Counted from the stretch's first letter, positions 415-14,399 are shown. The stretch: 32,000 bases of DNA from Kineococcus radiotolerans SRS30216 = ATCC BAA-149 (GCF_000017305.1 NC_009664.2:1950001-1982000), one strand, 5' to 3'. Numbers and translations: made by a program. Notes: generated by a model not told the origin, from the sequence alone.

Positions 415-708
415 GCGCCGCAGCGCTACGCCCCCGGCCTTGTCTACGTCGGGGGGCGGTTCCAGACTGCACGGCCGCGGCGCTGGTGGTGGACACTCGG
501 CACTGCCACCCATGGTGCAATAGCAAGGTGAAGCGCTTCCACTGAGCCTTAGCGACAGAATTGGCCTACGCCGACCCCTGATTTTGAAAGCCGCCGCCGT
601 CACGTCTTAGCAATATGGCTGTATATTTACATACCATCATTATCAGCACACTGCCCACGGCGGACTGCCGCCCCTCGTATTTCACCGCCTACACCGATCA
701 ATACGCCA

Positions 709-742
709 GAGGCCCCGACCCTCCAAGGAGAGCCGGGGCCTC
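709..742 (-). terminator. stem-loop about 40 nt downstream of the surface-protein stop codon
   Basis: GAGGCCCCG (709-717) pairs with CGGGGCCTC (734-742). An inner CTCC/GGAG pairing extends the stem. It lies just past the stop at 785-787 (minus strand). No clear U-tract. Confidence 0.45.
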
Positions 743-784
743 GAACTCACGTCACCCGGTCAATAGACCGGCCCTGACGATTGC

Positions 785-3700
785 TCAGCTAGCAGCAGGA
801 GGCGTGATCGCCGCAACCTGGCCGCTACCATCGACATCCGTCACGGTGCTGTTGGCAGTGCCGGGCAGGGCGGTCGCCGCCGCAAGGGCCCCCGTGCCAG
901 CAGCCGTCGCCGTCGTGAAGACGATGGTGTTGCCATTCACCGCGGCCGTGAATGCACCGGTGTCACCCGTAAAGGTGTTGGGACCGGTAATGGCTTCGAT
1001 CTCCGCTTCGCTGACCGCGCCTGCTCCCGTGATACCGGCCGCCAGGGTCGGAGCCGAGGAGAAGGTAAGCGTCAACTGGTCGCCGACATTGTTCCCGAAG
1101 CCCGCGGTTCCACCAGCAGTGATGGCGCCGGCAGTGATGAACGGAGCCACCGCGTAGCTCAAGGTCGCACTCGGCACGAATTCTGCGCTGGCGTCCCGGT
1201 AGGTGATGTACAGCGTGTCACCCGGGTTGAAGCCCGTCGTAGTGATCGTCAGCCCACCAGTGGCATCTTCGGTACCGGTACCGATGGCAACGCCGGCGGC
1301 GTTGTAGACGGTCACGATGTCACCATCCGCCTGCCCTGCGCCCGAACCGAGAGCCACAACTTCGGTGCTCGCATTGGCGTTAACCGCCGCGGTGGTCAGT
1401 ACAGTCGGGAGGGTTGTACCGACAACGGTGCGGTCCGTGCTGCGGGCCACGTTCCAGTCGCCGACCGCGTTACCAACGGTGGACTCGACGACGGCAACAA
1501 CAGCAGCGTCGGTGTTAATGACGCCGTTACCGCGCACGACCTCGGCCACCGGCGCGCCAGTGATGTCGACCGTGAGCACCGTGCTCTGAGCACCGCTGAC
1601 CGTGAACGTGGCGTTGGCGCCATTGGTCAGGGTCGCTTCGTCCCCATCCGTCTCGATGAGCCGGATAGTGTCCCCAGCCGCGACCGTGATCGCGCTGTTG
1701 AAGTTGAACACGAGGTTTTCGTCCGCGTCGAGAACGTTGTCAGACGTGGTCTCGTTGCTGCTGAGGCTGGCCGCGGTGCTGTAGGGGCTCGCCGGGGCAG
1801 CCACGGCCGTGGTGCTGGTGTCGATGCGGCCGCTGACCGCGGATTCTTCGCCATTCACAGTCTGGGTGACGAAGAGGTCATAGGCGGTGGAAGCCGTCAG
1901 ACCGCTGGCCGTGATCTGGAAGCCGGCCGTAGTGGCATCCTGGTCGGCCACCGTCTGACCGCGCTGCAGGTCGGTCGCGCGATCAAAGGCGTTGTTGTTG
2001 TCCGGCCCGCCGTAGACCGTGACCGTCGCACCCGCCACAAGACCGGTCAGGGTGAGGTTGACACCGGTCGCAGACGGGGTGACCGTCCCCACAGTCGGGG
2101 CCGCAGGGGCGAGGTCGTCGAGCAGGAAGGTCGACTGCAGCTCAGGAGTTGCGTTGTAGAAAGACCCCTGCGCAATAGCGTCGCCCGCGGAGAGCTGCGC
2201 TTCGAACTCGTCGGCGGTCACCTCTTCGGTCGCGTCAGCCGTCGTGTCGTTGTTGGCATTAACGAAGAACCGGTCGTTCGACTGGTACTCGTAGACCGCC
2301 CCAGCCGTCACTACGACGTTGGCCGTCTTGTCGACACTGGTGATGGCGGCGTCTGCAGAGACCACACCGGTGGTCGCTTCGGTGGGCAGGAACGTGATCT
2401 GTCCACCCAGCCCGAAGGGCTCGGTCGCAGGGGCGAAGGTACCTGCAGCGGTGGCGCTGGTTTCGAGGCGCGTGCTGGTTCCGCCCTGAGCGGCGGTCTT
2501 GCCCGGGCCGCCGTCGAGGTAGACGACCGGAACGATGTTCTCGGTGCCACCACCGTCCACGGTGAAGCTCAGGTTGCCGTTGACCGGCTGCGCAGTCGCG
2601 GTGTAAGCAGCGGGGGTCTGGGAGACCGCACTACCGTTCACAACGGTGATGGTCGCAAGACGCGAGCCCGGGTCGACCGAGAAGCCGCTGGGGGACGCTG
2701 CGTCAGCGCTGCTGAGGAAGGTCACCGACCCGTCAGCAGCCGTGCGGATGCTGTTTGCGTTGACAAGGGTGACACGGTACGTCGCCCCGGCCGTCAGGCC
2801 GGCAACCGAGTACGTACGGTCGTCAGTCGTGTCGTCGCTGGCGGGCACGACGAGGCTGACCGGAGTGGCCGGGCTGACAGCAACTCCCGGGACGCTGGAG
2901 CTGCCACCAGCAGACGTCCGAGCGGCATCAGTGATCGTCGTCGGCACGCTGTTAGCGTCACCGAAGACCCAGGCCTTGGTCAGCGTGGCGGCGTTCGCCT
3001 TGAGGTAGGCGTCCGTGCCGACACCCAGGCCGACAGTGCCCTCGGTCAGCAGGATCGGCGAGCCGGCGCGACCGGCGACCGGGCCGGCGGCCAGGGCGTC
3101 GATGCGGAAACCGTTGGCGAGCGCGGCACCGGTCTTGTTGAAGCCGAAGTCAGCCTCGAGGGCGATCGCGGCCGCGGTGGCGGTACGGTCCGAGCCCTGG
3201 ATGCGCTCGATATCGGTGACGGAGGCGAGGCCGTCGACCTGGGTGTAGACCGCGTCGGAGATGGCGTTCGCGTTGCCGAGGACGTAAACCTTGGTGACGC
3301 CGGCGGTGTTCAGCGCGGCGAGCGTCTCGGCGGGCAGCGAGTTCTGGTTGGTCAGCAGGACCGGGATCTTGTTCTTGAAGGCGGCCGGGCCGGCGGCGAG
3401 CGCGTCAGCGGCGACCTGGTTGGCGCCGTAGAGGTCGCCACGGGCCAGGAAGACCGTCTTCGGGGGGGTCACGCCGGCCTCGGTCATGACGTCGACCGCG
3501 GTCTGGAAGCGGTTCGGGCCGTCGATGCGCTGGCCGGTCTTGGTGCCGACGAGAGCGGAGTAGGTGCTGGCCGACACCGAGTTGGTGTCACCGAGGACGA
3601 TGACCGTCGTCGGGTTCAGCGAGGTGATGGCGGCGGCGGTCTGAGCCGGCACCGAGTCCTTCGCGGTCAGCAGGATCGGGGCGTCCTTGACGCCAGCCAG

Positions 3701-3964
3701 GTACGACGCGGCGAGGGCGTCGATGCCGGTGACCTCGCCGTTGGCGACGATGACGGTGGACGCGGAGGTCCAGCCGGCCAGCGCGGCCTTCGCGGCGGTG
3801 TCGTAACGGTCGACACCGGCGAGGCGGGAAGAAGCAGCAGAAGGGTCAAACCCAGGCGCAGCCTGAGCCGGGACCGCGGCAAGGCCGAGTCCGGTCAGAC
3901 CAACCAGAGCCGCGACGCCGGCCCCGATACCACGCCGGCGCAACCGGGAGGTTGCTGCGGTCAC
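785..3964 (-). CDS. secreted surface protein with three N-terminal CWB2 (cell wall binding repeat 2) modules and a long Thr/Ala/Val/Gly-rich beta-type C-terminal region; S-layer-like
   Basis: The ORF runs 785-3976. I place the start at GTG 3962-3964 because GGAGG (3969-3973) lies 4 nt upstream. Signal peptide: RLRRRGIGAGVAALVGLTGLGLAAVPAQA/APGF. Three repeats of the pattern R(L/I)xGxDR(Y/F)xTA...(S/A)PILLT...V(I/Y)VLG (RLAGVDRYDTAAK.., RIDGPNRFQTAVD.., RIQGSDRTATAAA..), roughly nt 2940-3830. No Cys and no LPXTG motif. The C-terminal ~700 aa look like tandem Ig/Fn3-like modules. Confidence 0.85.
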   Translation of the reverse strand: MTAATSRLRRRGIGAGVAALVGLTGLGLAAVPAQAAPGFDPSAASSRLAGVDRYDTAAKAALAGWTSASTVIVANGEVTGIDALAASYLAGVKDAPILLTAKDSVPAQTAAAITSLNPTTVIVLGDTNSVSASTYSALVGTKTGQRIDGPNRFQTAVDVMTEAGVTPPKTVFLARGDLYGANQVAADALAAGPAAFKNKIPVLLTNQNSLPAETLAALNTAGVTKVYVLGNANAISDAVYTQVDGLASVTDIERIQGSDRTATAAAIALEADFGFNKTGAALANGFRIDALAAGPVAGRAGSPILLTEGTVGLGVGTDAYLKANAATLTKAWVFGDANSVPTTITDAARTSAGGSSSVPGVAVSPATPVSLVVPASDDTTDDRTYSVAGLTAGATYRVTLVNANSIRTAADGSVTFLSSADAASPSGFSVDPGSRLATITVVNGSAVSQTPAAYTATAQPVNGNLSFTVDGGGTENIVPVVYLDGGPGKTAAQGGTSTRLETSATAAGTFAPATEPFGLGGQITFLPTEATTGVVSADAAITSVDKTANVVVTAGAVYEYQSNDRFFVNANNDTTADATEEVTADEFEAQLSAGDAIAQGSFYNATPELQSTFLLDDLAPAAPTVGTVTPSATGVNLTLTGLVAGATVTVYGGPDNNNAFDRATDLQRGQTVADQDATTAGFQITASGLTASTAYDLFVTQTVNGEESAVSGRIDTSTTAVAAPASPYSTAASLSSNETTSDNVLDADENLVFNFNSAITVAAGDTIRLIETDGDEATLTNGANATFTVSGAQSTVLTVDITGAPVAEVVRGNGVINTDAAVVAVVESTVGNAVGDWNVARSTDRTVVGTTLPTVLTTAAVNANASTEVVALGSGAGQADGDIVTVYNAAGVAIGTGTEDATGGLTITTTGFNPGDTLYITYRDASAEFVPSATLSYAVAPFITAGAITAGGTAGFGNNVGDQLTLTFSSAPTLAAGITGAGAVSEAEIEAITGPNTFTGDTGAFTAAVNGNTIVFTTATAAGTGALAAATALPGTANSTVTDVDGSGQVAAITPPAAS

Positions 3965-4058
3965 GATTGCCTCCAAGGCATGTGAAAGTGATGTTCCCCC
4001 CCACGAGGGGCCGGCTCGATTTCGAGCCTCGCCACCTCCCCAGACCGCTACGCAGCGG

Positions 4059-4420
4059 AGTGACTCGGTGACGGAACTGAACGTACACGAGAGTCACACC
4101 AGCAACACGGGGAGTAACAGAAGATCCAGAGCCCTCACGGCGTGTCGCAACAGTCTTACGGCCTGTGACCTGCGGTTTTGTGTCCGGCAGGTAAAAGTCA
4201 CAGTTTAGTAACGAGCGCCTCACCCGTCTCGCCCGCCCCAGACCACCCGTACGGAGTAGTCACATCAGGTGGGGTCACCACCCACGCACGGGCCATGACC
4301 CCGTGTGACTCGTGTGGGTGACTCCGACCGGACCCCTCCTCCCCGGTCGTCCGCAGCTCCCGTCGCCCTCTGTGACGAAGACGATCACGCGCCGGATCCC
4401 TGGCACACCGGGGGCGTCAC
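4059..4420. repeat. array of 11 GTGAC/GTCAC-core octamers (consensus kGTGACTc) in both orientations within the divergent intergenic region
   Basis: GTGAC at 4060, 4068, 4165, 4305, 4318 and 4372. GTCAC at 4093, 4197, 4259, 4274 and 4415. Six copies extend to TGTGAC. Includes the interrupted inverted repeat CTGTGACCTGC (4163-4173) / GCAGGTAAAAGTCACAG (4188-4204). Confidence 0.7.
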
Positions 4421-4467
4421 GGGATCGGCCCATCCAGCTCGTGCACCCGTGCACCGATGCCCCTGCC

Positions 4468-6696
4468 ATGACCGACGCACCACGGGCCTGGCGGGCGGGG
4501 CTCACAGCCACCGTGCTCGCCGCCACCGCCCCGCTGGCGCTGCTCGCCACCGCGCGCTCCGCGGGAGCGGCGCCGGTCACCGTGCTCATCGGCTTCGCGT
4601 GGCTGCTGAGCTGCGCCCTGGCCCCGCTCGTCGTGCGCTCCGCCACCCCCGCCGGCCTCACCCGGTACGCGCTCGCCGGGACGGTCTGGGGCGCGGGCAC
4701 CGTCGTCGCCGGCACCCTGCCCGCCGCCACGCTCGGCCCCCACCCCGTCCCCCACCTCGCCCACGCCGCCTCCCTGCTGGGCCTGGCCGCCATCGCCCTC
4801 CAGCAGCTGCACCACGCCCGCGACGGGCGCGACGAGTCCCCCCTGGGCGTCGAGACGGCCCTGCTCGCCGCGGTCCTCGCCGCCCTCGGCTGGGACTGGT
4901 CCGCGCGCGCCGGCCTCCACGGCGGCCCCTGGTGGGGCCCCTCGGCGGCCCTGGTCATCGTCGTCGCCAGCGTCGTCACCGCCGCCACCGTCGTCCTCGC
5001 CGTCGAGCACCCCGCGCTGCGGGTGCCCGGCGCCGGGCTCGCCGTCGTCGCCCTCGGCACCGAGCTCGCCGCCCTCACCTCCGCGCGCCACCCCCTCGTC
5101 GCCCTGGTGGCGATCGCCGCCGCCCTCGCCGGGGCCTACGTCCTCGTACTGGGCCAGCCGCGCGGCGGGATCGTCCGCCACGGCGGGGCCGCCGCCGCCG
5201 CCGGGGCCCGCCGCCTGCGGATCGCCACCGCCGTCCCCGCCGGGCTGCTCCTCGTCGACGTCGCGCTCTTCATCGGCGCCCCCCGCGCCGACGGGGCGAT
5301 GTTCGTCTTCTTCGCCGCCGTCGTCGTCGCCGCCGGGTTCCGGCAGGCCGCCACCGCCCGCGCCGTCGACCGCACCCACGACCGCCTCTCCTTCCAGGCC
5401 CTGCACGACCCCCTGACCGGGCTCGCCAACCGCGCCGCCCTCCAGTCCGCCCTCCACGAACCGGACCGCACCCAGTCGCTGGCCCTCATCGAGGTCGGCG
5501 GCCTCGACGACGTCACCGACGTCCTCGGCGTCACCGTCGGGGAGGACGTCCTGCGCGCCGCCGCCGCGAACCTGCGCGAGCACGTCCACGCCCTCGGCGG
5601 GACGACGTACCGGGTCCGCCACGACGAGTTCGCGGTGCTGCTGCCCGGGCCCCCCGAGGAGACCGTCCGGCACCTGCCCGGCGCGTTCGCCGCCGTCAGC
5701 GCCGCCCCCCTGCAGGTCCCCGGCGCGGGACGCTTCCCCGTCGACGCCGTCGCCGGTCTCGCCGCCGTCGCCTCCGGGCCCAGCACCGGCGGGGGCCGGG
5801 AGGCCATGACCCCGCTGCTGCACGCCGACCTCGCCCTGCGCGACGCCCGCCTCGGCGCCACCGGGTTCTCCGTCTACTCCGGCGAGGTCGCCAGCGCCCA
5901 CGCCCGCCGCCTGCTGCTGCGCGAGCGCCTCGCCTTCGCCGTCGCCGAGGGGACCGTCGACGTCCACTACCAGCCGATCGTGAACTTCACGACTGGCCGG
6001 GTGGAGAAGTTCGAGGCCCTCGCCCGCTGGGACGACGTCCAGCTCGGGCGCATCTCCCCCGTCGAGTTCATCGCCGTCGCCGAGGAGTCCAACCTCGTCG
6101 TCGCCCTCGGCGAGCACGTCCTGCGCCGCGCCGTGGCCAGCGCCCACGCCGCGGGGGTCTTCGCCGCGGGCGTGCGCCTCGCCGTCAACGTGTCCGTCGT
6201 GCAGCTGCAGGCGCCCGGCTTCGCCGACGTCGTCCGCGAGATCCTCGCCCAGCACGAGATCCCCCCGCACCTGCTGACCCTGGAGCTCACCGAGTCGGTG
6301 TTCCTCGACAGCGACTCCCCCGCCGAGCGCGTCGTCACCGAGCTCGCCGCCCTCGGCTGCCAGATCGCCATCGACGACTTCGGCACCGGCTACTCCGCCT
6401 TCGGCTACCTCGACCGGCTGCCCGTGCACGTCCTCAAGGTCGACCGCTCCCTCACCCAGTCCATGACCGGCGCGGGCAACGGCCTGTCCGTCGTCACCGC
6501 CGTCGTCGACCTCGCCAACCGCCTCGGGCTCACCGTCGTCGTCGAGGGCGTCGAGACCGACGAGGAGGCCGAGATCTGCCGCTCCATCCAGGCCGGTCTC
6601 GGGCAGGGCTGGCTGTACTCCGCGGCCGTCACCGCTGACCGGATCGGGGCGGAGCTGGCGCGGGAGTACCCGGTGTCGCCGGGGGCGGTGCGCTGA
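4468..6696 (+). CDS. polytopic membrane protein with degenerate GGDEF domain and intact EAL domain (predicted c-di-GMP phosphodiesterase)
   Basis: The ORF runs 4312-6696. The start is uncertain; ATG 4468 precedes the first TM segment (MTDAPRAWRAGLTATVLAATAPLALL). GGDEF-fold region: LHDPLTGLANR ... RVRHDEFAVLLPG, where RHDEF replaces GGDEF. EAL motifs are all present: FEALARW, AVNVS, LELTE, DDFGTGYS, LKVDRS, VVEGVETDEE, GQGWLYS. Confidence 0.85.
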   Translation: MTDAPRAWRAGLTATVLAATAPLALLATARSAGAAPVTVLIGFAWLLSCALAPLVVRSATPAGLTRYALAGTVWGAGTVVAGTLPAATLGPHPVPHLAHAASLLGLAAIALQQLHHARDGRDESPLGVETALLAAVLAALGWDWSARAGLHGGPWWGPSAALVIVVASVVTAATVVLAVEHPALRVPGAGLAVVALGTELAALTSARHPLVALVAIAAALAGAYVLVLGQPRGGIVRHGGAAAAAGARRLRIATAVPAGLLLVDVALFIGAPRADGAMFVFFAAVVVAAGFRQAATARAVDRTHDRLSFQALHDPLTGLANRAALQSALHEPDRTQSLALIEVGGLDDVTDVLGVTVGEDVLRAAAANLREHVHALGGTTYRVRHDEFAVLLPGPPEETVRHLPGAFAAVSAAPLQVPGAGRFPVDAVAGLAAVASGPSTGGGREAMTPLLHADLALRDARLGATGFSVYSGEVASAHARRLLLRERLAFAVAEGTVDVHYQPIVNFTTGRVEKFEALARWDDVQLGRISPVEFIAVAEESNLVVALGEHVLRRAVASAHAAGVFAAGVRLAVNVSVVQLQAPGFADVVREILAQHEIPPHLLTLELTESVFLDSDSPAERVVTELAALGCQIAIDDFGTGYSAFGYLDRLPVHVLKVDRSLTQSMTGAGNGLSVVTAVVDLANRLGLTVVVEGVETDEEAEICRSIQAGLGQGWLYSAAVTADRIGAELAREYPVSPGAVR

Positions 6697-6712
6697 GGAG
6701 ACCCGGCCGGCT

Positions 6713-6729
6713 GTAGCCGATCCGGCTAC
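6713..6729. promoter_or_regulatory. 7-bp inverted repeat GTAGCCG-atc-CGGCTAC immediately upstream of the antitoxin gene
   Basis: Perfect stem 6713-6719 / 6723-6729. It sits 17 nt after the upstream stop and 10 nt before the antitoxin GTG. It could be a TA autoregulatory operator or a small terminator hairpin. Confidence 0.3.
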
Positions 6730-6738
6730 CGTCGTTCC

Positions 6739-7065
6739 GTGAAGACCATCAGGGGGCGCGACCTGCGCAACGACTACGCCCGGATCCTGCGCGAGATCGA
6801 AGGCGGGGAGACCTTCACGGTGACCAGCGACGGGCGCCCCGTCGCGAGCATCACGCCCTACACCGCTCCCGACGGTCCTCAGACCTGGGTCCCCGCCGAC
6901 CGGGCCATCGGCGGACTGGCCCACCTCGGTCTCCCCGACGACTTCGCGGAGACCTTGCGCCGCGACCTCGACGAGCACTTCGTCACCGAGGTCGAGGACC
7001 CGCTGGAGCGGTGGGAAGCCCAGCAGGCCGAACTCGGGCAGGACGAGGAGCCGGGCAGCCGGTGA
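6739..7065 (+). CDS. type II antitoxin, Phd/YefM family
   Basis: The N-terminus MKTIRGRDLRNDYARILREIEGGETFTVTSDGRPVASITPY matches the Phd/YefM pattern (..REL/DLRxxxxxxLxxVexGExxxVTxxGRPVAxLxP). The stop overlaps the downstream PIN gene start by 4 nt (GTGA). Confidence 0.8.
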   Translation: MKTIRGRDLRNDYARILREIEGGETFTVTSDGRPVASITPYTAPDGPQTWVPADRAIGGLAHLGLPDDFAETLRRDLDEHFVTEVEDPLERWEAQQAELGQDEEPGSR

Positions 7066-7466
7066 CGAACCTGCTGCTCGACACCAACGCCGTCATCACG
7101 ATGGCGGCCGCACCCCCGGGCACCACCTTCGCCGGGATCCAGGACGGCGACGTGCTGGCCATCTCGACGGTGACGGAACTGGAGGTGCGGCTCGGCGTCG
7201 GGTTGCGACCGGGCAACGTGCACCTGCTGCAGACGCTGGCCTGGCTGACCCGGAACTACCGCGGCATCCCCACCGACGCTGCGGTGGTGGCGGCCTTCCC
7301 GGTGATCGTCGCCTCCGCCGTGGCCGCCGGGCAGAGCCCGGAGCGGCGCATCGCCGATCTGACCATCGCAGCGACGGCTCTCGCCCACGGCGCCACGTTG
7401 ATCACCGACGACAGGACGCTGCGCAACGCCCTCACCGGCGCGGTGGCGACGCGATCCCTGCAGTGA
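7062..7466 (+). CDS. vapC: PIN-domain ribonuclease toxin (VapC family)
   Basis: The start at GTG 7062 overlaps the antitoxin stop. The sequence VTNLLLDTNAVI.. carries the acidic PIN residues (LLDTN, TELEV, IADLTIAATA, LITDD). 134 aa, typical VapC size. Confidence 0.85.
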   Translation: MTNLLLDTNAVITMAAAPPGTTFAGIQDGDVLAISTVTELEVRLGVGLRPGNVHLLQTLAWLTRNYRGIPTDAAVVAAFPVIVASAVAAGQSPERRIADLTIAATALAHGATLITDDRTLRNALTGAVATRSLQ

Positions 7467-7476
7467 AACCGGTCGC

Positions 7477-7532
7477 GGAGGGGAACGTCCGGCGGCTCGA
7501 CGGGCCCCGGAGGCCGCCGGACGTTCCCCTCC
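7477..7532. terminator. bidirectional hairpin with a perfect 20-bp stem between convergent genes
   Basis: GGAGGGGAACGTCCGGCGGC (7477-7496) pairs perfectly with GCCGCCGGACGTTCCCCTCC (7513-7532), with a 16-nt loop. It lies between the vapC stop (7466) and the CSD gene stop (7540). Confidence 0.6.
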
Positions 7533-7539
7533 CGCCGGG

Positions 7540-8019
7540 TCAGCGTCCGTCGACGAGGAACCCGCGGTCGAAGCCGTAGTCGGTCAGCGCGTCGCGCAGC
7601 TCCCGGACCTGCCGGCCGCTGAGGTCGTCGACCGCGCTCAGCAGGAGCTCGGTGACCTCGCGGCGGAACTGCTCCACCGGCAGGGCCCCGCCGCGCGCGG
7701 CGGGACGCCCGCCCGCACCGGCCCGGTCCCGGCCCGCGTCACGACTGGAGTCACGGCCTGCATCACGACTGGAGTCGCGGCTGGGCCCGCGGCCCGCCGA
7801 GCCCAGCGGCCGGACGTCGGTGGCCTTGTAGCCGCGGTCACCCTGGTCCAGGGTGAACTGCACCGACGCGCCCTCCAGGTCCTCGGCCTCCAGGTCGACG
7901 ACGTCCTTCACGTGGAAGAAGACGTTCTCCGGGCAGTCCGGGCTGGTGATGAAACCGAACCCGCGCCCGTCGTCGAACGACCGGACCTTGCCCTTGGCCA
8001 GCGAAGCCACCAGTACCAC
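7540..8019 (-). CDS. cold-shock-domain protein with Arg/Asp/Ser-rich repeat linker and C-terminal helical extension
   Basis: N-terminal CSD with RNP1-like RGFGFI and RNP2-like VFFHV (KGKVRSFDDGRGFGFITSPDCPENVFFHVKDV...). This is followed by SRDSSRDAGRDSSRDAGRD and about 50 further residues. At 159 aa it is more than twice the length of a classical Csp. Confidence 0.85.
   Translation of the reverse strand: MVLVASLAKGKVRSFDDGRGFGFITSPDCPENVFFHVKDVVDLEAEDLEGASVQFTLDQGDRGYKATDVRPLGSAGRGPSRDSSRDAGRDSSRDAGRDRAGAGGRPAARGGALPVEQFRREVTELLLSAVDDLSGRQVRELRDALTDYGFDRGFLVDGR
7739..7786. repeat. tandem duplication, 24 bp x 2, inside the CSD gene
   Basis: TCACGACTGGAGTCACGGCCTGCA (7739-7762) is followed by TCACGACTGGAGTCGCGGCTGGGC (7763-7786). 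It encodes the SRDAGRDS repeat. Confidence 0.8.
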
Positions 8020-8147
8020 TCACTCTCGATCGACTCACGGCCCGCCGCCGCGCGAGGGGCCGGGGGACATCCTCCCCGAGGACGGGACGCGCCGGCGCCA
8101 CCACCGCGGCCCCCGTGGTCCGGCGGCGGCCCGGCGGCGGCGCTGCG

Positions 8148-8486
8148 TCAGCCGGACGGCGGTGCGTAGCGCCAGCCCCACCCGTGGGCGTCGCGGTGGA
8201 CGGTGACCGGGCCCGAGCGCACCGGGGTCCCCGCGGGCTCGTCGTGCAGGGCCTGAACGCCCTCGCGGGCCGCGGCCGCCACCAGCGCGCACCCGCCGGC
8301 GTCGACGACGGCGTGGGCGTGGTCGCGGTCGTCGCAGTCGCGGTCCTCGTCGACGGCGCACACGCTGCGGCAGGGCGCCCCGGCCTCGGCGCGGCAGGTG
8401 ATCCGGCCCGCGACGCGCCCGCCGTCGGCGTGCCACCAGGTGACCTCGTGCGAGGGGGCGGGGGACGGGGCGGTGGGGGCGGTCAT
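8148..8486 (-). CDS. hypothetical small Cys-rich protein (112 aa)
   Basis: The start at ATG 8484-8486 is preceded by GGAGAG 7 nt upstream. Nearly all third codon positions are G/C. Cys pattern C31-X7-C39-X3-C43-X7-C51-X14-C66, with a WWH motif and a C-terminal GWGWRY. The longer 183-aa ORF extension to 8699 is low-complexity and lacks an RBS. Confidence 0.6.
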   Translation of the reverse strand: MTAPTAPSPAPSHEVTWWHADGGRVAGRITCRAEAGAPCRSVCAVDEDRDCDDRDHAHAVVDAGGCALVAAAAREGVQALHDEPAGTPVRSGPVTVHRDAHGWGWRYAPPSG

Positions 8487-8701
8487 CGGTCGGCTCTCCT
8501 GAACCTCGTGCGGGTCGTCCGGGGCCATCGTCCCCCCGGCGCCGGGCCCGCGCCCGGCCCGCCCGCCGCCCCGGTCCGGCGAGGGCCCGAGGGTGGTCCG
8601 GGGGGTTCCGTCCGCGCCACCACCCCCCTCGCGCCGGGGCCGGTCTTCTGGAAGTGTTCTCGCCATCCAGTGACGCTCCGTGGTCGGAGGGAGACTCAAA
8701 C

Positions 8702-10897
8702 GTGCTTGCCCTCGGGGTGCTGCGCGTCGTCCTCCTCCTCGCCGCCTGGTACGTCCTGCGCGGGCAGGCGCGCGCCGCGGAGGCCGGGAGCCGCATCTGG
8801 AACAGCCACGCCGCCGCCGTCGGCGTCCTCGCCGCGGGGGCGCTCGCGAGCCTCGTCCCCACCCTCGTCGGGCTCCCCGCGCAGTGGGCGGCGGACGTCT
8901 TCTCCGCCACCACGCTGCCCGCCTGCCTGCTCGTCTACCGCGGGATGGCCACCTACCACCGCCTCCACTCCGCCACCGGAGAGGTCGCGGACTGGCTGGT
9001 GGCCCTCAGCTGCGTGCTCACGGCCACCGCCGCCGCGAACCTCCTGCTGCAGACCGGCGTCCTGCACAGTCCCCTCACCGGCCCGGCGCTGCAGCACCGA
9101 CTGCTGACCGTCGCCTCCGTCACCGTCGTGCTCGCGGTCCTGCTGCGGGTCGTGCGCACCAGCCGGGCCGTCGACGCCCGCACCACCCTGCTCCTCACCG
9201 GGTCGCTGCTGAGCGTGCTGCTGGCCCACGTGTGGGTGACCCTGGCCGTCGTCAGCCCGCTCGCCCGCACGGGCCTCTCCTTCACCTGGGTCGCCTTCGC
9301 CGGCGCCCTCGCCCACACCGTCGTCCGCCGGCGCAACGACACGACCCGCCCCCTCACCACCTCGCCGCTGTCCACGACCACCACCGCCTTCGCCACCCTG
9401 CTCGCCGGGGTCGGCGTCATCACCGCCACCACCCTGCAACCGGGCGACGGGCGGCTGCGCTGGTCGGTGGTCTGGGCCGTGCTGGCCGTGCTGCCCGTGG
9501 CCGGCCGGATCCGGCAGCTCGTGCGGGGCCTGGTCCACCACGACCGCGTCCAGCGCGAGGCCGCCACCGACGAGCTCACCGGGCTGCCCAACCGGCGCGC
9601 CTTCACCGCCGCGCTGGAGACCGCCACCCGCGAGCGGCGGCCCGCGACCGTGCTGCTCATCGACCTCGACCGCTTCAAGGAGGTCAACGACCGCTACGGG
9701 CACGCCACCGGTGACCGGCTGCTGCAGCACGTCAGCCGCGCCTTCACCGGCGTCCTGCCCGCCGGGGCCCTGCTCGCCCGCCTCGGCGGCGACGAGTTCG
9801 CCGTCCTGCTCACCGCCGCCCCCCACGCCGGCGACCCGGACCTCTCCCTGCGGACCGCCCACCACGTGGGCACCGCCGCCGAGCGCGACCCCCTCGACGG
9901 GGTGCACCAGGTCGTCGCCAGCGTCGGCGTCGTCACCACCGACGGCCTCCAGCACCTGCAGGGGGAGGACCTGCTGCGCCGCGCCGACGCCGCGATGTAC
10001 GTCGCCAAGGCCGGCGGGGGCGGGGTCGGCGTCCACGACGACGCCGCCGCGCGGCGGTGGCGCCGGCACGAGGCCCTCGCCCTCGGCCTCCTCGACACCT
10101 TCTCCCCCGCCGCGGGCGCCACCACCCGCGAGGAGTTCGAGGTCCACTACGAGCCGCAGGTCACCCGCGAGGGCTGGACCGCCGGGGTCCGGGCGTCGCT
10201 GCGGTGGTCCCACCCCGTGCTGGGGGTGCTGGACCCGCCCGAGTTCCTCGGGGTCGCCGAGGAGCTGCGGCTGCTGCCGGAGCTGACGACGCACCTGGTG
10301 ACCCGCGGGTGCGCCGACCTCGCGCGGTGGCGGGCCGCCGGCCACGACGTGCGGCTGTCCTTCCCCGTCGACCCCCTCCAGCTCACCGACCCGCGGCTGC
10401 TGGACCTGCTGGACGCCGTCGTCGCCGCCGGGACCGACCCCCGGCTGCTCGTGGTGGGGACCACCGCGGCGGTCTTCGCCGACGACCCCGAGAGCGCCAC
10501 CCGCACCTGCCGCGAGATCGACGCCCGCGGCTGCGGCCTGTCCATCGACGACTTCGGGACGGGCTGGCCCTCCCTGGCCCACCTGGCGGCCCTGCCCGTC
10601 GGGGAGGTCACCGTCGACGCCGCGCTGACCGCCCGCCTCCTCCTCGACCCGCGCGTCGCGACCGTCGTCGCCGCCGCGGTCGGGTTCGCCCACCACCTCG
10701 GCCTGCGCGTCGTCGCCGACGGGGTCGCCGACGCGACGACCCTGGACCTGCTGCACGGGATGGGCTGCGACCTCACCCGGGGGCCCCTGCACGGCCGGCC
10801 CGTCCCCGCGGGCGGGCTGCACCTGACCCTGCCGATCCCCGTCCCGCGCCCCACCCCGCACCCCGTCCCGTCGGCGCTGGACCCCACCCGCACCTGA
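8702..10897 (+). CDS. polytopic membrane protein with intact GGDEF domain and degenerate EAL domain
   Basis: The ORF runs 8654-10897. GTG 8702 is preferred as the start because GGAGGGAG (8687-8694) lies 7 nt upstream. GGDEF motifs: TDELTGLPNRR, DLDRFKEVNDRYGH, ARLGGDEFAVLL, RADAAMYVAKAGGG. EAL-fold region with lost catalytic motifs: ASL for EAL, SFPVD for xVNxS, VVGTT for ELTE, VTVD for KxD, ADGVAD for EGVE. Only DDFGTG is retained. Confidence 0.85.
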   Translation: MLALGVLRVVLLLAAWYVLRGQARAAEAGSRIWNSHAAAVGVLAAGALASLVPTLVGLPAQWAADVFSATTLPACLLVYRGMATYHRLHSATGEVADWLVALSCVLTATAAANLLLQTGVLHSPLTGPALQHRLLTVASVTVVLAVLLRVVRTSRAVDARTTLLLTGSLLSVLLAHVWVTLAVVSPLARTGLSFTWVAFAGALAHTVVRRRNDTTRPLTTSPLSTTTTAFATLLAGVGVITATTLQPGDGRLRWSVVWAVLAVLPVAGRIRQLVRGLVHHDRVQREAATDELTGLPNRRAFTAALETATRERRPATVLLIDLDRFKEVNDRYGHATGDRLLQHVSRAFTGVLPAGALLARLGGDEFAVLLTAAPHAGDPDLSLRTAHHVGTAAERDPLDGVHQVVASVGVVTTDGLQHLQGEDLLRRADAAMYVAKAGGGGVGVHDDAAARRWRRHEALALGLLDTFSPAAGATTREEFEVHYEPQVTREGWTAGVRASLRWSHPVLGVLDPPEFLGVAEELRLLPELTTHLVTRGCADLARWRAAGHDVRLSFPVDPLQLTDPRLLDLLDAVVAAGTDPRLLVVGTTAAVFADDPESATRTCREIDARGCGLSIDDFGTGWPSLAHLAALPVGEVTVDAALTARLLLDPRVATVVAAAVGFAHHLGLRVVADGVADATTLDLLHGMGCDLTRGPLHGRPVPAGGLHLTLPIPVPRPTPHPVPSALDPTRT

Positions 10898-10961
10898 CGC
10901 GCCCGCAGCGGACGGGGGTCGGGGGCTACGGATCGGCCCCGGACGTTCCGATGCACCGGAG

Positions 10962-13343
10962 GTGAACGCACGGTCCCTCCGCCGGCCCGGCGCGCCCGCG
11001 CCGGTGCGGAGCGTGCTCTTCGCCGCGCTGTTCCTCGTCGCCGTGCACCTGGGCCGGCTCAGCGTCGTCGACGGCGCCGGGCCCGCCGTCGTGTGGCCCG
11101 CCGCCGGGGTGGCCGCGGCCTGGTTCAGCGTCCAGCGCGCCACCAGCACCCGCTGGTCCGACCGCTGGCTCGACGTGCTCCTCATCACCGCCGTCACCGT
11201 CGCGGTGAACGCGGCCACCGGCGCCGGGGCCGTCCTCGTCGTGGGGTTCGTCGTCGCGAACCTGCTGCAGGCGGAGCTGTTCGCGGCCCTGCGCCGGCGC
11301 TGGTTCACCCCCTCCGTGGCGCTGCTGGGCACCCGCCAGCTCGCGGTGCTGCTGGCCGCCACCACCGCGGCCTGCGCGGTCGGCACCGCCGTCGGCACCG
11401 TCGTCGTCGCGCTGGACGGGTCACCGCCGGACTGGACGTCGGTCGCGATCTGGTTCACCCGCAACTGGGCCGGGATCCTGCTCGTCACCCCCGTCCTGCT
11501 GCGGCTGGTCCTCCGCGTCCCCGTCCGGTGGCCGGTGGGGACCGCCGCCACGGCGGAGCTGACCGCCGCCCTCGCCGTCTCCGTCCTCGCCTACGTCGGG
11601 GTGTTCTGGGCCGTCGACGGGCTGCCGCTGGCGTTCCTGCCGCTGGCGGCCACGATCTGGCTGGCCCTGCGCTTCGACACCACGATCGTCGTCGTCGCCG
11701 GTCTCGTCGTCGCCACCACCACGGTGCTGGGCACCCTCGCCGGGCACGGGCCGTTCGCCGCCGTCCCCGACGACCTGACGCGGATCCTCGTCGTGCAGGT
11801 CCACGTGGGCTTCCTCGCCGCCCTCGGCCTCGCCCTCGCCGTCGGCCGCGACGAGCGGGCCTCCCTGGTGGCGCGGCTCTCCGCCGCGAGCGCCGAGGCC
11901 CAGGCCGCGCGCGCGGAGGCCGAGCACCGGGAGCGGTTCGCGGAGGCGGTCCTGGCCGGTGTCGGCACCGGGATCGTCGTGTCCGACCCGCAGGGGCGCC
12001 TCGTCACGTTCAACGACACCGCCCGCGCCTGGCACGGCCTCGACGCCGACGCCGACCTGGACCCCGTCCAGCACGCGGGGACCTACCACCTCTTCGCCGC
12101 CGACGGCTCCACCCCGCTGACCCACGCCGAGATCCCCCTGGTGCGCACGCTGCACGAGGGCCGGGTCAGCGCCGCCGAGATGGTCATCGCCCGCCCGGGC
12201 CGGCCCCCCGTCCCCGTCGTGTGCAGCGGGCGGACCGTGGTCGGCGCGGACGGGGAGGTCCTGGGGGCGGTCGTGGCGATGCACGACCTCACCGACACCC
12301 GGGCCCGGGAGGCGGACCTGGCCGCGGCGAACGCGCGCCTGGCCGCGCACGTGGCCCAGGTGGAGCGGCTGGCGGCGGCCTCGCGGGCCGTCCTGACCGC
12401 GGAGGACCCGCGGCGGGCGGTCGTGGCGGCGGCGGTGGAGATCGCCGGGGCCGAGGCCGCCTACCTCCTGCAGCCCGACGGGCAGGGCCGGCTGGTGTCG
12501 ACCTCGACGACCGGGCTGCCCGAGGACCTCGTCCTGAGCCTGGACCTGGACGGGCCGACGACCCTGGTGGTCGGCAGCTACCTGGACGGGGAGGCGCTGT
12601 TCGTCCCCGACGTCGCGACGCACCCGCGGGCCGACCCCCGCCTCATCGAGGTCTGCGGGACGGTCTCGGGGGCCTGGCAGCCCGTCGTGGACGCCGGCGG
12701 GCAGGTCGTGGGGGTGCTCGGCATCATCTGGCGCGAGCCGGTGGCGGTGCTGGAGCCCACGACGGCCGCGGTGCTGCAGGGCCTGGCCGCGGAGGCGGCG
12801 CACGCCTTCGCCCGCGCGGACCTGCTGGCCCGGCTGGCCCGCGACGCCCAGCACGACGCGCTCACCGGGCTGGTCAACCGCCGCCGCTGGGACGCCCTGG
12901 CCCGCCGGGAGATCCGCCGGGCGGGGCGCCACCGGACGCCGCTGACGTTCGCGCTGCTGGACCTGGACCACTTCAAGCTCTTCAACGACACCCGCGGCCA
13001 CCTCGCCGGGGACGAGCTGCTGCGGGGGTTCTCCCTGGCGGCCGGGGCGCAGCTGCGCGAGCTGGACACGCTCTCGCGGTGGGGGGGCGAGGAGTTCGCG
13101 CTGCTGCTGCCCGGCTGCACCGCCGCCGACGCGGTGGACGTGGTGGACCGGATCCGCGCCGTCGTCCCCGAGGGGCAGACCTGCACCGCGGGGATCTGCG
13201 AGTGGCTGCCGGGGACGGAGGCCGCGGAGGTCATGGCCGCCGCCGACCGGGCCCTGTACCGGGGCAAGGAGGTGCGCGACACGACCGTCGTCGGGTCCGT
13301 CCTGGACGTGCCCGCCCCCGCCGCCGGGGTCCCGGAGCGCTGA
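10962..13343 (+). CDS. MASE1-PAS-GAF-GGDEF diguanylate cyclase
   Basis: N-terminal membrane domain with a MASE1-like signature (AVHLGRLSVV..PAVVWPAAGVAAAWF). PAS (GIVVSDPQGRLVTFNDTARAWHG...). GAF (AYLLQPDGQGRLVSTS...GVLGIIWREP). GGDEF (DALTGLVNRR, DLDHFKLFNDTRGH, SRWGGEEFALLL) with an RxxD I-site (RELD) 5 residues upstream. The exact start is uncertain; alternatives are GTG 11004 and 11013. Confidence 0.85.
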   Translation: MNARSLRRPGAPAPVRSVLFAALFLVAVHLGRLSVVDGAGPAVVWPAAGVAAAWFSVQRATSTRWSDRWLDVLLITAVTVAVNAATGAGAVLVVGFVVANLLQAELFAALRRRWFTPSVALLGTRQLAVLLAATTAACAVGTAVGTVVVALDGSPPDWTSVAIWFTRNWAGILLVTPVLLRLVLRVPVRWPVGTAATAELTAALAVSVLAYVGVFWAVDGLPLAFLPLAATIWLALRFDTTIVVVAGLVVATTTVLGTLAGHGPFAAVPDDLTRILVVQVHVGFLAALGLALAVGRDERASLVARLSAASAEAQAARAEAEHRERFAEAVLAGVGTGIVVSDPQGRLVTFNDTARAWHGLDADADLDPVQHAGTYHLFAADGSTPLTHAEIPLVRTLHEGRVSAAEMVIARPGRPPVPVVCSGRTVVGADGEVLGAVVAMHDLTDTRAREADLAAANARLAAHVAQVERLAAASRAVLTAEDPRRAVVAAAVEIAGAEAAYLLQPDGQGRLVSTSTTGLPEDLVLSLDLDGPTTLVVGSYLDGEALFVPDVATHPRADPRLIEVCGTVSGAWQPVVDAGGQVVGVLGIIWREPVAVLEPTTAAVLQGLAAEAAHAFARADLLARLARDAQHDALTGLVNRRRWDALARREIRRAGRHRTPLTFALLDLDHFKLFNDTRGHLAGDELLRGFSLAAGAQLRELDTLSRWGGEEFALLLPGCTAADAVDVVDRIRAVVPEGQTCTAGICEWLPGTEAAEVMAAADRALYRGKEVRDTTVVGSVLDVPAPAAGVPER

Positions 13344-13378
13344 ACGCGCCCCGGGGCCCGGAGACGAGGACGGAGCGG

Positions 13379-13852
13379 TCAGCCTCCCAGCGGGAGGGCG
13401 TTCCAGCGGCTGGTGAAGGCGAGGCCGCTGCGCTGGAAGAGCTGGGTGACGGGGCAGCGGCGCTCGGTCTCGCTGCGCAGCCGCGCGAACTGCTCCGGGG
13501 TGGCGTCGGTCCCGAGGTCCACCTCGACGGTGACGGCGACGAAGTTCGCGTTGCCCTCCGCCCCGGTGGAGATGACCGACGGGTCGAGGTCGCCCTGGGC
13601 GCGCAGGCGCCACGTCCCCAGGGTGAGGCCCAGGTCGCGGGCGACGAGGCTGCCCGTCACCTGGTGGCAGGACGTGAGCGCGCCGAGGGCGTAGCTCAGC
13701 GGGCTGGGCTCGGCGTCGGCGCCGCCGAAGGCGGGCAGGGTGTCGGCGCGGAAGCGGTGGGGGTGGGCGCCGGGGGCGGTGACGGTCTGGGCGACACCGC
13801 TCCCCTCGGCCTCGACGACGAAGGGGACGGTCGGCCGGGAGCCATCGGTCAC
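13379..13852 (-). CDS. OsmC/Ohr-family peroxiredoxin-like protein
   Basis: Two-Cys OsmC pattern (PSPLSYALGALTSCHQV and ERRCPVTQL). The start is placed at GTG 13850-13852 because AGGAGG lies 8 nt upstream. The ORF itself extends to 13870. Confidence 0.85.
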   Translation of the reverse strand: MTDGSRPTVPFVVEAEGSGVAQTVTAPGAHPHRFRADTLPAFGGADAEPSPLSYALGALTSCHQVTGSLVARDLGLTLGTWRLRAQGDLDPSVISTGAEGNANFVAVTVEVDLGTDATPEQFARLRSETERRCPVTQLFQRSGLAFTSRWNALPLGG

Positions 13853-13965
13853 GGGGGGTTCCTCCTGCACGGCGCGACCCGGCGGTCGGGTGCGCGGGGC
13901 GACCGTACGACGGCGGGCCGCGCGCGGCGCGGGGACGGGCGGCCCGCCGGGTCCAGCCGCCGGGC

Positions 13966-14241
13966 TCAGCGCAGGAGGGCGACCTCGCGCCGGGGCAGGA
14001 CGAGGCGCTCGCGCAGGAACGTCTGGACGTTGGCGCCGAGGGGGTCCCCGGCCTGCGCCTTGCCGGGGTCGTCGAGCCCGCGCTCGCGCCGGGGGACGGG
14101 GATCGCGGCGGCGCGCAGCGAGTTCAGCAGCCGCCGGGAGTAGGTCCCGGTGTGCAGGCAGAGCCGGGCCTCCTCGCGGAGGTCGTCGTCGAGACCGTCG
14201 TACCAGTCTTCATAGGTGGCGATCACGCAGTCAGTGTGCAC
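13966..14241 (-). CDS. hypothetical protein (91 aa)
   Basis: ORF with strongly G/C-biased third positions, upstream of and co-oriented with OsmC. No family recognised and the start is uncertain. Confidence 0.4.
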   Translation of the reverse strand: MHTDCVIATYEDWYDGLDDDLREEARLCLHTGTYSRRLLNSLRAAAIPVPRRERGLDDPGKAQAGDPLGANVQTFLRERLVLPRREVALLR

Positions 14242-14379
14242 TCCCGCCGTTCACCGGAGCGCCACTCTGCCGCCACCCGAGCAGCACTGCGACGCAGCGT
14301 GTTCGAGTGACCTCGTTGCGCGACGGGCGGGTGGCGGCGCCGCCCCCGCTCCCCACCGCCCCGCGCCGAGCGGGTCACC

Positions 14380-14399
14380 CACCCGCGGAGTCGCGGGTG
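14380..14399 (+). promoter_or_regulatory. GC-rich hairpin covering the candidate SD and GTG start of the LOV phosphatase gene
   Basis: CACCCGCG (14380-14387), loop GAGT, CGCGGGTG (14392-14399): a perfect 8-bp stem. GGAG (14387-14390) and GTG (14397-14399) lie inside the structure. Confidence 0.3.

Follow-up and report, generated by a model that had tools for sequence, protein, structure and literature searches.

The gene at 785-3964 on the minus strand of a 32-kb stretch of the chromosome of Kineococcus radiotolerans SRS30216, a soil actinobacterium resistant to radiation (positions 1,950,001-1,982,000; the whole stretch is referred to below as the window) encodes a 1059-aa protein with three cell wall-binding repeats of the CWB2 type followed by a long body. 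We consider this protein, with a probability of about 0.55, to be the principal member of a nine-protein Cwp-like family and the main variable surface coat of the organism, of the surface layer (S-layer) type in the wider sense. That it forms a true two-dimensional lattice is a real possibility, to which we would give somewhat less than even odds. The precursor would take the general secretion pathway and lose its signal peptide after AQA35, and the three N-terminal CWB2 repeats would fold into one pseudo-threefold prism that binds a secondary cell-wall glycopolymer non-covalently. The remaining ~700 residues, a chain of beta-sandwiches, would project outward as the exposed cell face. Anchor, signal peptide and leader would be kept near-constant, while the exposed body would diverge fast and be replaced by recombination between strains. 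The coat function is one that we infer; what we report is the domain content, how the anchor and the core of the body fold in the model, where the gene occurs within the genus, and the mosaic way in which it is conserved.

The genome examined consists of three replicons of 4,761,183, 182,572 and 12,917 bases, published as a 4.76-Mb chromosome with plasmids of 0.18 Mb and 12.92 kb (PMC2587704). The features of the gene and its flanks, in window coordinates, are as follows.

3965..4311, minus strand: intergenic region of 347 nt between the surface-protein gene and a divergent GGDEF-EAL gene, putative promoter and leader
3970..3974, minus strand: Shine-Dalgarno sequence GGAGG, 5 nt upstream of the GTG start (3964), read from the sequence
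785..3964, minus strand: gene for the 1059-aa surface protein with the CWB2 anchor, ending in a stop codon at 785-787, from the open reading frame list and translation
3860..3964, minus strand: signal peptide, residues 1-35, MTAATSRLRRRGIGAGVAALVGLTGLGLAAVPAQA followed by AP, with a basic RLRRRG n-region, a hydrophobic core and a cleavage site between AQA and A
3563..3826, minus strand: CWB2 repeat 1, residues 47-134 (PF04122, E 5.7e-17)
3248..3529, minus strand: CWB2 repeat 2, residues ~146-239 (PF04122, E 1.4e-16)
2933..3205, minus strand: CWB2 repeat 3, residues ~254-344 (PF04122, E 9.6e-15)
1415..2929, minus strand: body core, residues 346-850, about four beta-sandwich domains resembling immunoglobulin (Ig) and fibronectin type III (FN3) domains, no Pfam family
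788..1414, minus strand: distal region, residues 851-1059, missing from most aligned orthologues, with the lowest G+C content at third codon positions (GC3) and poorly modelled
709..742, minus strand: G+C-rich hairpin of 15 bp, 43 nt past the stop codon, likely terminator

The translated product was identical to a recorded 1059-aa protein over its full length (100% identity and coverage). A Pfam scan returned PF04122 (CW_binding_2) three times (E 9.4e-44, 148.3 bits against a cut-off of 24.9) and no other family, and a scan against NCBIfam gave no match. In a sequence search of the PDB, the first 345 residues matched Cwp6 (5j72, 2e-30), Cwp8 and the high-molecular-weight (HMW) part of SlpA, all from Clostridioides difficile, and the motifs G-x-D-R-[YF]-x-T-A and P-[IV]-L-L lined up with the Cwp proteins of that species. 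Residues invariant in 36 homologues were R53, T56, D82, P96 and L98 in repeat 1, R152, T155, D187 and P201 in repeat 2 and R260, T263, D289 and L291 in repeat 3. The AlphaFold2 model, made with 36 homologues, had a predicted local distance difference test score (pLDDT) above 90 across residues 40-350. Since the ten best Foldseek matches in the PDB were all C. difficile CWB2 proteins, a pseudo-threefold CWB2 prism is predicted for the anchor; these matches included Cwp6 5j72 (E 1.7e-22), Cwp8 5j6q (root-mean-square deviation 2.7 A over 331 columns) and SlpA HMW (7acy_B, TM-score 0.71, normalised to target length). The profile search for PF04122 and the structure prediction had both been named beforehand, in an earlier note on this DNA, as tests of its claim of three tandem CWB2 modules, and both returned the CWB2 family, with a predicted fold that superposes on Cwp8.

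The same note had claimed a secretion signal and the absence of an LPXTG sortase signal, and both claims were borne out. The signal peptide is a direct reading of the translation, one that does not distinguish the Sec from the Tat route, and neither an L[PA]x[TSA]G motif nor a hydrophobic C-terminal tail was found in the 1059-aa protein. Anchoring through CWB2 and display of the body on the wall are thus well supported as a predicted mechanism by homology and by the structure model, and binding to a wall polymer would follow from the likeness to the C. difficile Cwp proteins.

Conservation along the gene was mosaic. Across 35 aligned homologues the signal peptide was 91-100% identical in most, the anchor was either 90-96% (five close relatives) or ~51% identical, and the body 14-56%. 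The mature protein of Kineococcus orthologues was only 20-50% identical despite the near-invariant signal peptide. Gene order is the same in GCA_014191015.1, another assembly that carries the name K. radiotolerans, and identity to it was 98.1% in the GGDEF-EAL gene, 96.5% in the intergenic region, 99% (nucleotide) in the signal peptide and 93.3% in the CWB2 module. Identity then fell to ~70% exactly at the boundary between CWB2 and body (window ~2930), was at background past residue 520 (window ~2403), and similarity was back at 96% in the downstream gene for an S8 protease with LGFP repeats. The replaced segment of GCA_014191015.1 carries a different 855-aa allele, a 943-aa gene and an EcsC-like gene. 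The 943-aa product has the same layout, its first 387 residues being 48% identical to the signal-peptide-and-anchor region of the 1059-aa protein and its body being different. The 943-aa and EcsC-like genes lie directly downstream of the allele (10686-14653 of the GCA_014191015.1 locus) and are both missing in SRS30216.

A conserved anchor joined to a swapped exposed part is, by analogy, the pattern of the SlpA cassette types and of CwpV in C. difficile. The comparative pattern fits, and strengthens, a plausible but unproven S-layer-type role for the protein. The frozen 5' end, which extends across the genus, could be an expression and secretion platform or a recombination anchor.

PF04122 matched 27 times in the K. 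radiotolerans genome, corresponding to nine triple-CWB2 proteins. The 1059-aa protein is the largest of the nine and the sole one with a long unassigned region; the eight paralogues comprise four CWB2-only proteins, one with PKD, one with NPCBM and two with NHL propellers, one of which also carries He_PIG and fn3. CWB2 was present in all 27 other Kineococcus genomes and in both sister-genus genomes, with 14-43 repeats each, and in just 3 out of 31 further genomes from the order to which Kineococcus belongs, and on these counts the family is a hallmark of the Kineococcus lineage. All close homologues of the 1059-aa protein come from Kineococcus, with orthologues in more than 20 named species. 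One copy of the body (residues ~360-850) could be detected in each of 19 out of 27 other Kineococcus species, and all five of the body-negative species that were checked had a full-length match to signal peptide plus CWB2 within a 913-1139-aa frame. A counterpart is therefore present in every Kineococcus genome checked, and it appears from these alignments that its body can diverge beyond recognition between species. In several other Kineococcus species further CWB2 genes lie 3-40 kb from the orthologue.

The earlier note knew of no functional description of the module in actinobacterial envelopes, and we likewise found no functional study of CWB2 in Actinobacteria in the literature. Its occurrence there is on record: database annotation routinely names the Kineococcus homologues 'cell wall-binding repeat-containing protein', and the presence of CWB2 in Actinobacteria, above all in Micrococcales, is noted in a review (PMC5817068).

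The whole protein is acidic, lacks Cys and His and contains hardly any Lys or Met. Its body, residues 346-1059 (714 aa), is free of Cys, His and Met and has just 2 Lys, an isoelectric point of ~4.05 and a composition of 17.2% Ala, 15.8% Thr, 10.6% Gly and 10.4% Val, in agreement with an earlier description as about 700 Cys-free residues rich in Thr, Ala, Val and Gly. In the AlphaFold2 model of the full protein pLDDT was 85-93 for residues 360-850 and below 50 for residues 851-1059. A separate model of residues 346-850 had a mean pLDDT of 87 and consisted of about four beta-sandwich domains. The stacked beta-sandwich modules proposed before are therefore found by model in residues 360-850, but they are not sequence repeats, as no tandem DNA repeats were found in the gene and self-BLAST gave no internal protein repeats. 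Foldseek matched the body to generic tandem Ig/FN3 arrays only (NCAM2, PTP-delta, fibronectin, titin and the base of bacterial GhpA); no S-layer or adhesin structure stood out among these fold matches, and when the PDB was searched by sequence using the body by itself, nothing matched even at E 10. A wall-polymer anchor joined to a separate beta-sandwich array, a combination by which S-layer proteins are recognized, is present here in sequence and model.

A library of 1.84 billion cluster representatives was scanned in full with HMMER, and the body turned up in 216 proteins. Their anchors were surveyed by a Pfam scan on a 52-member sample of 143 homologues, and among 51 sampled body homologues CWB2 was present in 21, N-terminal SLH in 10 and recognizable fn3 in 18. 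When ten homologues were scanned individually, SLH repeats preceded the body in eight of them (three repeats in two proteins, one or two in six). Residues 727-1059 were 36% identical to an SLH-anchored metagenomic protein (P0195), which indicates that the distal region is a real domain family and not junk. The sole named relative of the body outside Kineococcus was a CWB2 protein of Euzebya sp., and no SLH domain was found in the K. radiotolerans genome. In the S-layer proteins of Firmicutes, homologous surface domains are described as occurring with either SLH or CWB2 anchors, the one having been exchanged for the other; the same swap also occurs there in wall proteins that are not S-layer proteins, and Actinobacteria are not mentioned (bioRxiv 10.1101/2025.04.02.646754). 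The exchange of anchors among homologues of the Kineococcus body appears to mirror the swapping in Firmicutes S-layer proteins.

Evidence bearing on expression came from codon usage and points in more than one direction. GC3 was 0.93-0.95 in residues 101-300, 0.82 over the whole gene and 0.72-0.75 in the last 260 codons, against a genome median of 0.96, so that an earlier claim of almost exclusively C- and G-ending codons, with GGT, CGT and GCT as the minor alternatives, was correct for the anchor and not for the rest of the gene. Residues 1-345 use GGT at 0.26, CGT at 0.31 and GCT at 0.15, with GAA and AAT absent, and the whole gene has GGT at 0.33, CGT at 0.25 and GGG at 0.14. In the genes for ribosomal proteins and EF-Tu, GGT (0.20, bulk 0.07) and CGT (0.14, bulk 0.03) are raised and GGG and CGG are less used, GGG being 0.16 in ribosomal-protein genes; the flagellin gene has GGT 0.39, CGT 0.26, GGG 0.06 and GCT 0.20. 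None of the eight CWB2 paralogues (GGT 0.05-0.28, GGG 0.10-0.37) had the combination found in the surface-protein gene. The flagellin and flagellar hook genes (chromosome 579937-581595 and 543940-545328) share its codon profile, with a GC3 of 0.82-0.85.

Both the classical codon adaptation index and a likelihood ratio of ribosomal-protein against bulk usage are confounded by the low GC3 of the body, with low-GC islands also scoring high, and for this reason a test restricted to C- and G-ending codons was used. In this test the whole gene lay at the 92nd percentile, the anchor at the 98th, flagellin at the 94th and sampled genes from low-GC islands at the 60th-80th. The codon usage of the anchor fits high expression, and the composition of the body would also reflect a different, probably recombinant, history.

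The layout of the gene also lends support to the reading of a principal coat, with its Shine-Dalgarno sequence, conserved 347-nt upstream region and strong 3' hairpin, and together with the codon signature it would be consistent with high expression. An alternative in-frame TTG at 3976 is an unlikely start because it overlaps the Shine-Dalgarno sequence. The RNA fold of 690-790, which contains the hairpin, had a free energy of -57.6 kcal/mol (z = -5.8), and with so strong a 3' hairpin the gene is probably monocistronic. Directly beyond the hairpin is an AT-rich stretch without open reading frames (540-708, gataatgatggtatgtaaatatacagccatattgctaag), G+C elsewhere in the window being mostly 70-80%; it falls within the segment replaced in the second K. 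radiotolerans assembly. The long upstream leader claimed earlier is real as a 347-nt gap, of which the sequence is alignable across Kineococcus species for ~360 nt upstream of the gene, and the word leader itself should be read as putative. A scan for the sigma-70 consensus found no promoter. No Rfam family matched in 500-4600, and accordingly no riboswitch, for c-di-GMP (cyclic di-GMP) or otherwise, was found in the leader. The leader does contain an imperfect inverted repeat (4086-4112 and 4299-4316; 18 nt, 83% complementary) flanking 186 nt. Its arms are made of GTGTGACTC-type boxes and its geometry resembles that of the cwpV switch.

A number of points weigh against the protein being the main coat. 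Cells of K. radiotolerans are reported to lie in a thick extracellular matrix (PMC2587704), the genome and proteome papers on the organism mention neither the surface protein nor an S-layer (the copper-proteome paper does not mention the protein in its text or supplements), and a codon-based study of predicted highly expressed genes gives no S-layer-like gene for this species (PMC4510606). The codon adaptation index of the gene was 0.52, the 9th percentile of genes, which is low because the body uses GAA (54%), GAT, AAT and ATT. These codons are avoided by ribosomal-protein genes, so that the unusual codon usage seems to stem in part from foreign or recombinant DNA and not from translational selection. 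Because generic Ig/FN3 arrays, the only matches of the body, have a fold that adhesins share, fold searches cannot separate an S-layer from an adhesin. The many c-di-GMP genes nearby point to regulated and not to constitutive expression. Only one SecA is encoded in the genome, with no SecA2, and in the GCA_014191015.1 strain a further large CWB2 gene stands in tandem with the allele.

A more specific form of the coat reading, which we offer tentatively and hold to be rather less probable than its opposite, is that Kineococcus has a true CWB2-anchored S-layer in which the frozen 5' module of leader, signal peptide and anchor acts as a fixed platform for expression, secretion and attachment. Lattice-forming bodies would be exchanged onto this platform between strains and species, and the same family of bodies would be usable on SLH anchors elsewhere. 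We found no report of a Kineococcus S-layer in the literature.

The alternative which survives best, though we think it unlikely, is that the protein belongs to the CwpV or Cwp66 type and serves, under regulation, as an adhesin, in aggregation or in phage exclusion. It would then be anchored by CWB2 and exposed at the surface, but produced by a subset of cells or under certain conditions only (the aggregated non-motile stage, controlled by c-di-GMP, being one example), and it would decorate the wall without forming a continuous coat. The layout of N-terminal CWB2 repeats and a strain-variable C-terminal part is like that of CwpV (PMC3080850, PMC4737114), and Ig/FN3-like arrays are typical of adhesin stalks; the protein has, however, no tandem sequence repeats of the kind found in CwpV. 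Three GGDEF/EAL genes lie within 10 kb, one of them divergent from the same intergenic region and syntenic in GCA_014191015.1, and another member of the CWB2 family likewise has a GGDEF-EAL gene as its partner, which would suit such control, as would the alternation of the species between matrix-bound cell cubes and motile zoospores (PMC2587704). Against this, the scan of the leader and its surroundings yielded no riboswitch. The inverted repeat around 186 nt of the leader could be taken for a phase switch, but the leader was in the same orientation and colinear in 10 of 10 related assemblies compared, with no inversion seen. A counterpart in every Kineococcus genome checked would be unusual for an accessory adhesin, and the codon signature is like that of the flagellin and ribosomal-protein genes. 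Should the protein prove to be merely one accessory adhesin among nine, it would be an ordinary and correctly annotated wall protein.

It is improbable that this is an ordinary, low-abundance accessory wall protein whose odd composition reflects a horizontally acquired or recombinant body and neither high expression nor a special role. In favour of this reading, GC3 is 0.93 in the anchor but only 0.72 distally, the flank on the 3' side is AT-rich and is replaced, together with the body, in the GCA_014191015.1 strain, low-GC islands elsewhere also score high on the likelihood ratio and the codon adaptation index is at the 9th percentile. Against it, the avoidance of GGG and CGG and the preference for CTC follow the ribosomal-protein pattern, the island genes remain well below the gene and its anchor in the test of C- and G-ending codons, the strongest codon signature sits in the anchor, whose composition is native, signal peptide and leader are conserved genus-wide, and the signature is unique among the nine paralogues.

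Taken as the main surface coat of K. radiotolerans, the protein can be compared with several known systems. Like SlpA HMW, Cwp6 and Cwp8 of C. difficile (5j72, 5j6q) it has three PF04122 repeats, here predicted to form a triangular prism, is secreted and lacks a sortase signal. The Cwp family of C. difficile has 29 members, and the Kineococcus family is likewise multi-gene, with nine members in the K. radiotolerans genome. The conserved anchor and strain-variable exposed part are shared with the C. difficile S-layer cassette types. In contrast to SlpA, in which the anchor lies in the C-terminal HMW part, the anchor of the Kineococcus protein is N-terminal, the body is Ig/FN3-like, no LMW_SLP (PF12211) was found in the Pfam scan and SecA2 is missing, and the host is a high-GC actinobacterium with a different wall from that of C. 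difficile. The protein does not qualify as an SlpA orthologue, the only Pfam match being PF04122 and the genome having a single SecA. CwpV (PMC3080850) is similarly the largest of its CWB2 family, with N-terminal CWB2 repeats, a conserved N-terminus and a strain-variable C-terminus. The variable part of CwpV consists of tandem repeats, which the Kineococcus protein does not have, and CwpV is switched by an invertible element, whereas no inversion was seen among the 10 assemblies compared here.

The order of an N-terminal triple wall-polymer anchor followed by a beta-sandwich chain is also that of Sap and EA1 of Bacillus anthracis (PMC8056022). Two such genes stand in tandem in the GCA_014191015.1 strain, as do sap and eag in B. 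anthracis, and homologues of the Kineococcus body exist with SLH anchors. Sap and EA1 are themselves SLH-anchored, unlike the Kineococcus protein, which has CWB2 in a genome that lacks SLH, and they were not among the top 50 fold matches. PS2 of Corynebacterium glutamicum is another large, acidic, secreted surface protein of an actinobacterium, but it lacks CWB2 and sits in the mycomembrane, held there by a hydrophobic segment at its C-terminus (PMC8056022).

The wall polymer bound by the anchor was approached through gene content, as the earlier note had suggested, but this survey did not yield a ligand. Arabinogalactan is given in the literature as a trait of the genus, and Kineococcus is described as being without mycolic acids. 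A teichoic-acid-like polymer was considered as the CWB2 ligand because the K. radiotolerans genome contains two strong TagF-type genes. As genus-wide makers of the ligand the TagF-type polymerases were rejected, being present in 18 of 27 Kineococcus genomes and absent from 9, including ones with ~40 CWB2 repeats. An AftA-type arabinosyltransferase, present in 10 of 27 genomes and not in SRS30216, was rejected as well. Neither type tracks CWB2, which is found in 27 of 27. The wall-polymer gene content of Kineococcus is heterogeneous on these same counts (TagF-type 18/27, AftA-type 10/27).

The surface-protein gene is divergent from a GGDEF-EAL gene, which is followed by a PhdYefM/PIN pair, a gene for a cold-shock-domain protein and a further two genes of c-di-GMP turnover. 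The three c-di-GMP turnover genes lie within 4312-13343 of the window, two being GGDEF-EAL and one MASE1-PAS-GGDEF. Amid them are the overlapping genes of a PhdYefM-type antitoxin and a PIN-domain toxin (6739-7466), in a segment that differs in GCA_014191015.1. About 16 kb from the surface-protein gene, an NHL-CWB2 paralogue is also paired with a GGDEF-EAL gene (chromosome 1934443-1936245). Downstream, an AT-rich gap is followed by the convergent gene of the S8 protease with four LGFP repeats. This subtilase (chromosome 1947363-1949903) has cadherin/Ig-like domains in addition to its four LGFP wall-binding repeats and is syntenic in GCA_014191015.1; it could be a candidate processing protease of the surface protein. 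A PMT_2 glycosyltransferase, two DUF2079 membrane proteins and a beta-lactamase-family protein are also encoded within 20 kb.

The occurrence of CWB2 in Actinobacteria was already known; what is new is the comparative and mosaic pattern in Kineococcus and the existence of SLH-anchored homologues of the body. If the protein is the surface coat, K. radiotolerans would be a tractable, cultivable and non-pathogenic actinobacterial model for CWB2 anchoring outside Firmicutes, and a CWB2-anchored S-layer in Kineococcus would, as far as the literature was searched, be the first described in Actinomycetota. The wall polymer bound would have to differ from C. difficile PSII and could be identified, and neither the pattern of a conserved anchor with swappable domains nor the exchange between SLH and CWB2 would be peculiar to Firmicutes. 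A dominant acidic surface protein would also be relevant to metal binding by K. radiotolerans, to its tolerance of desiccation and radiation and to its switch between aggregates and zoospores.

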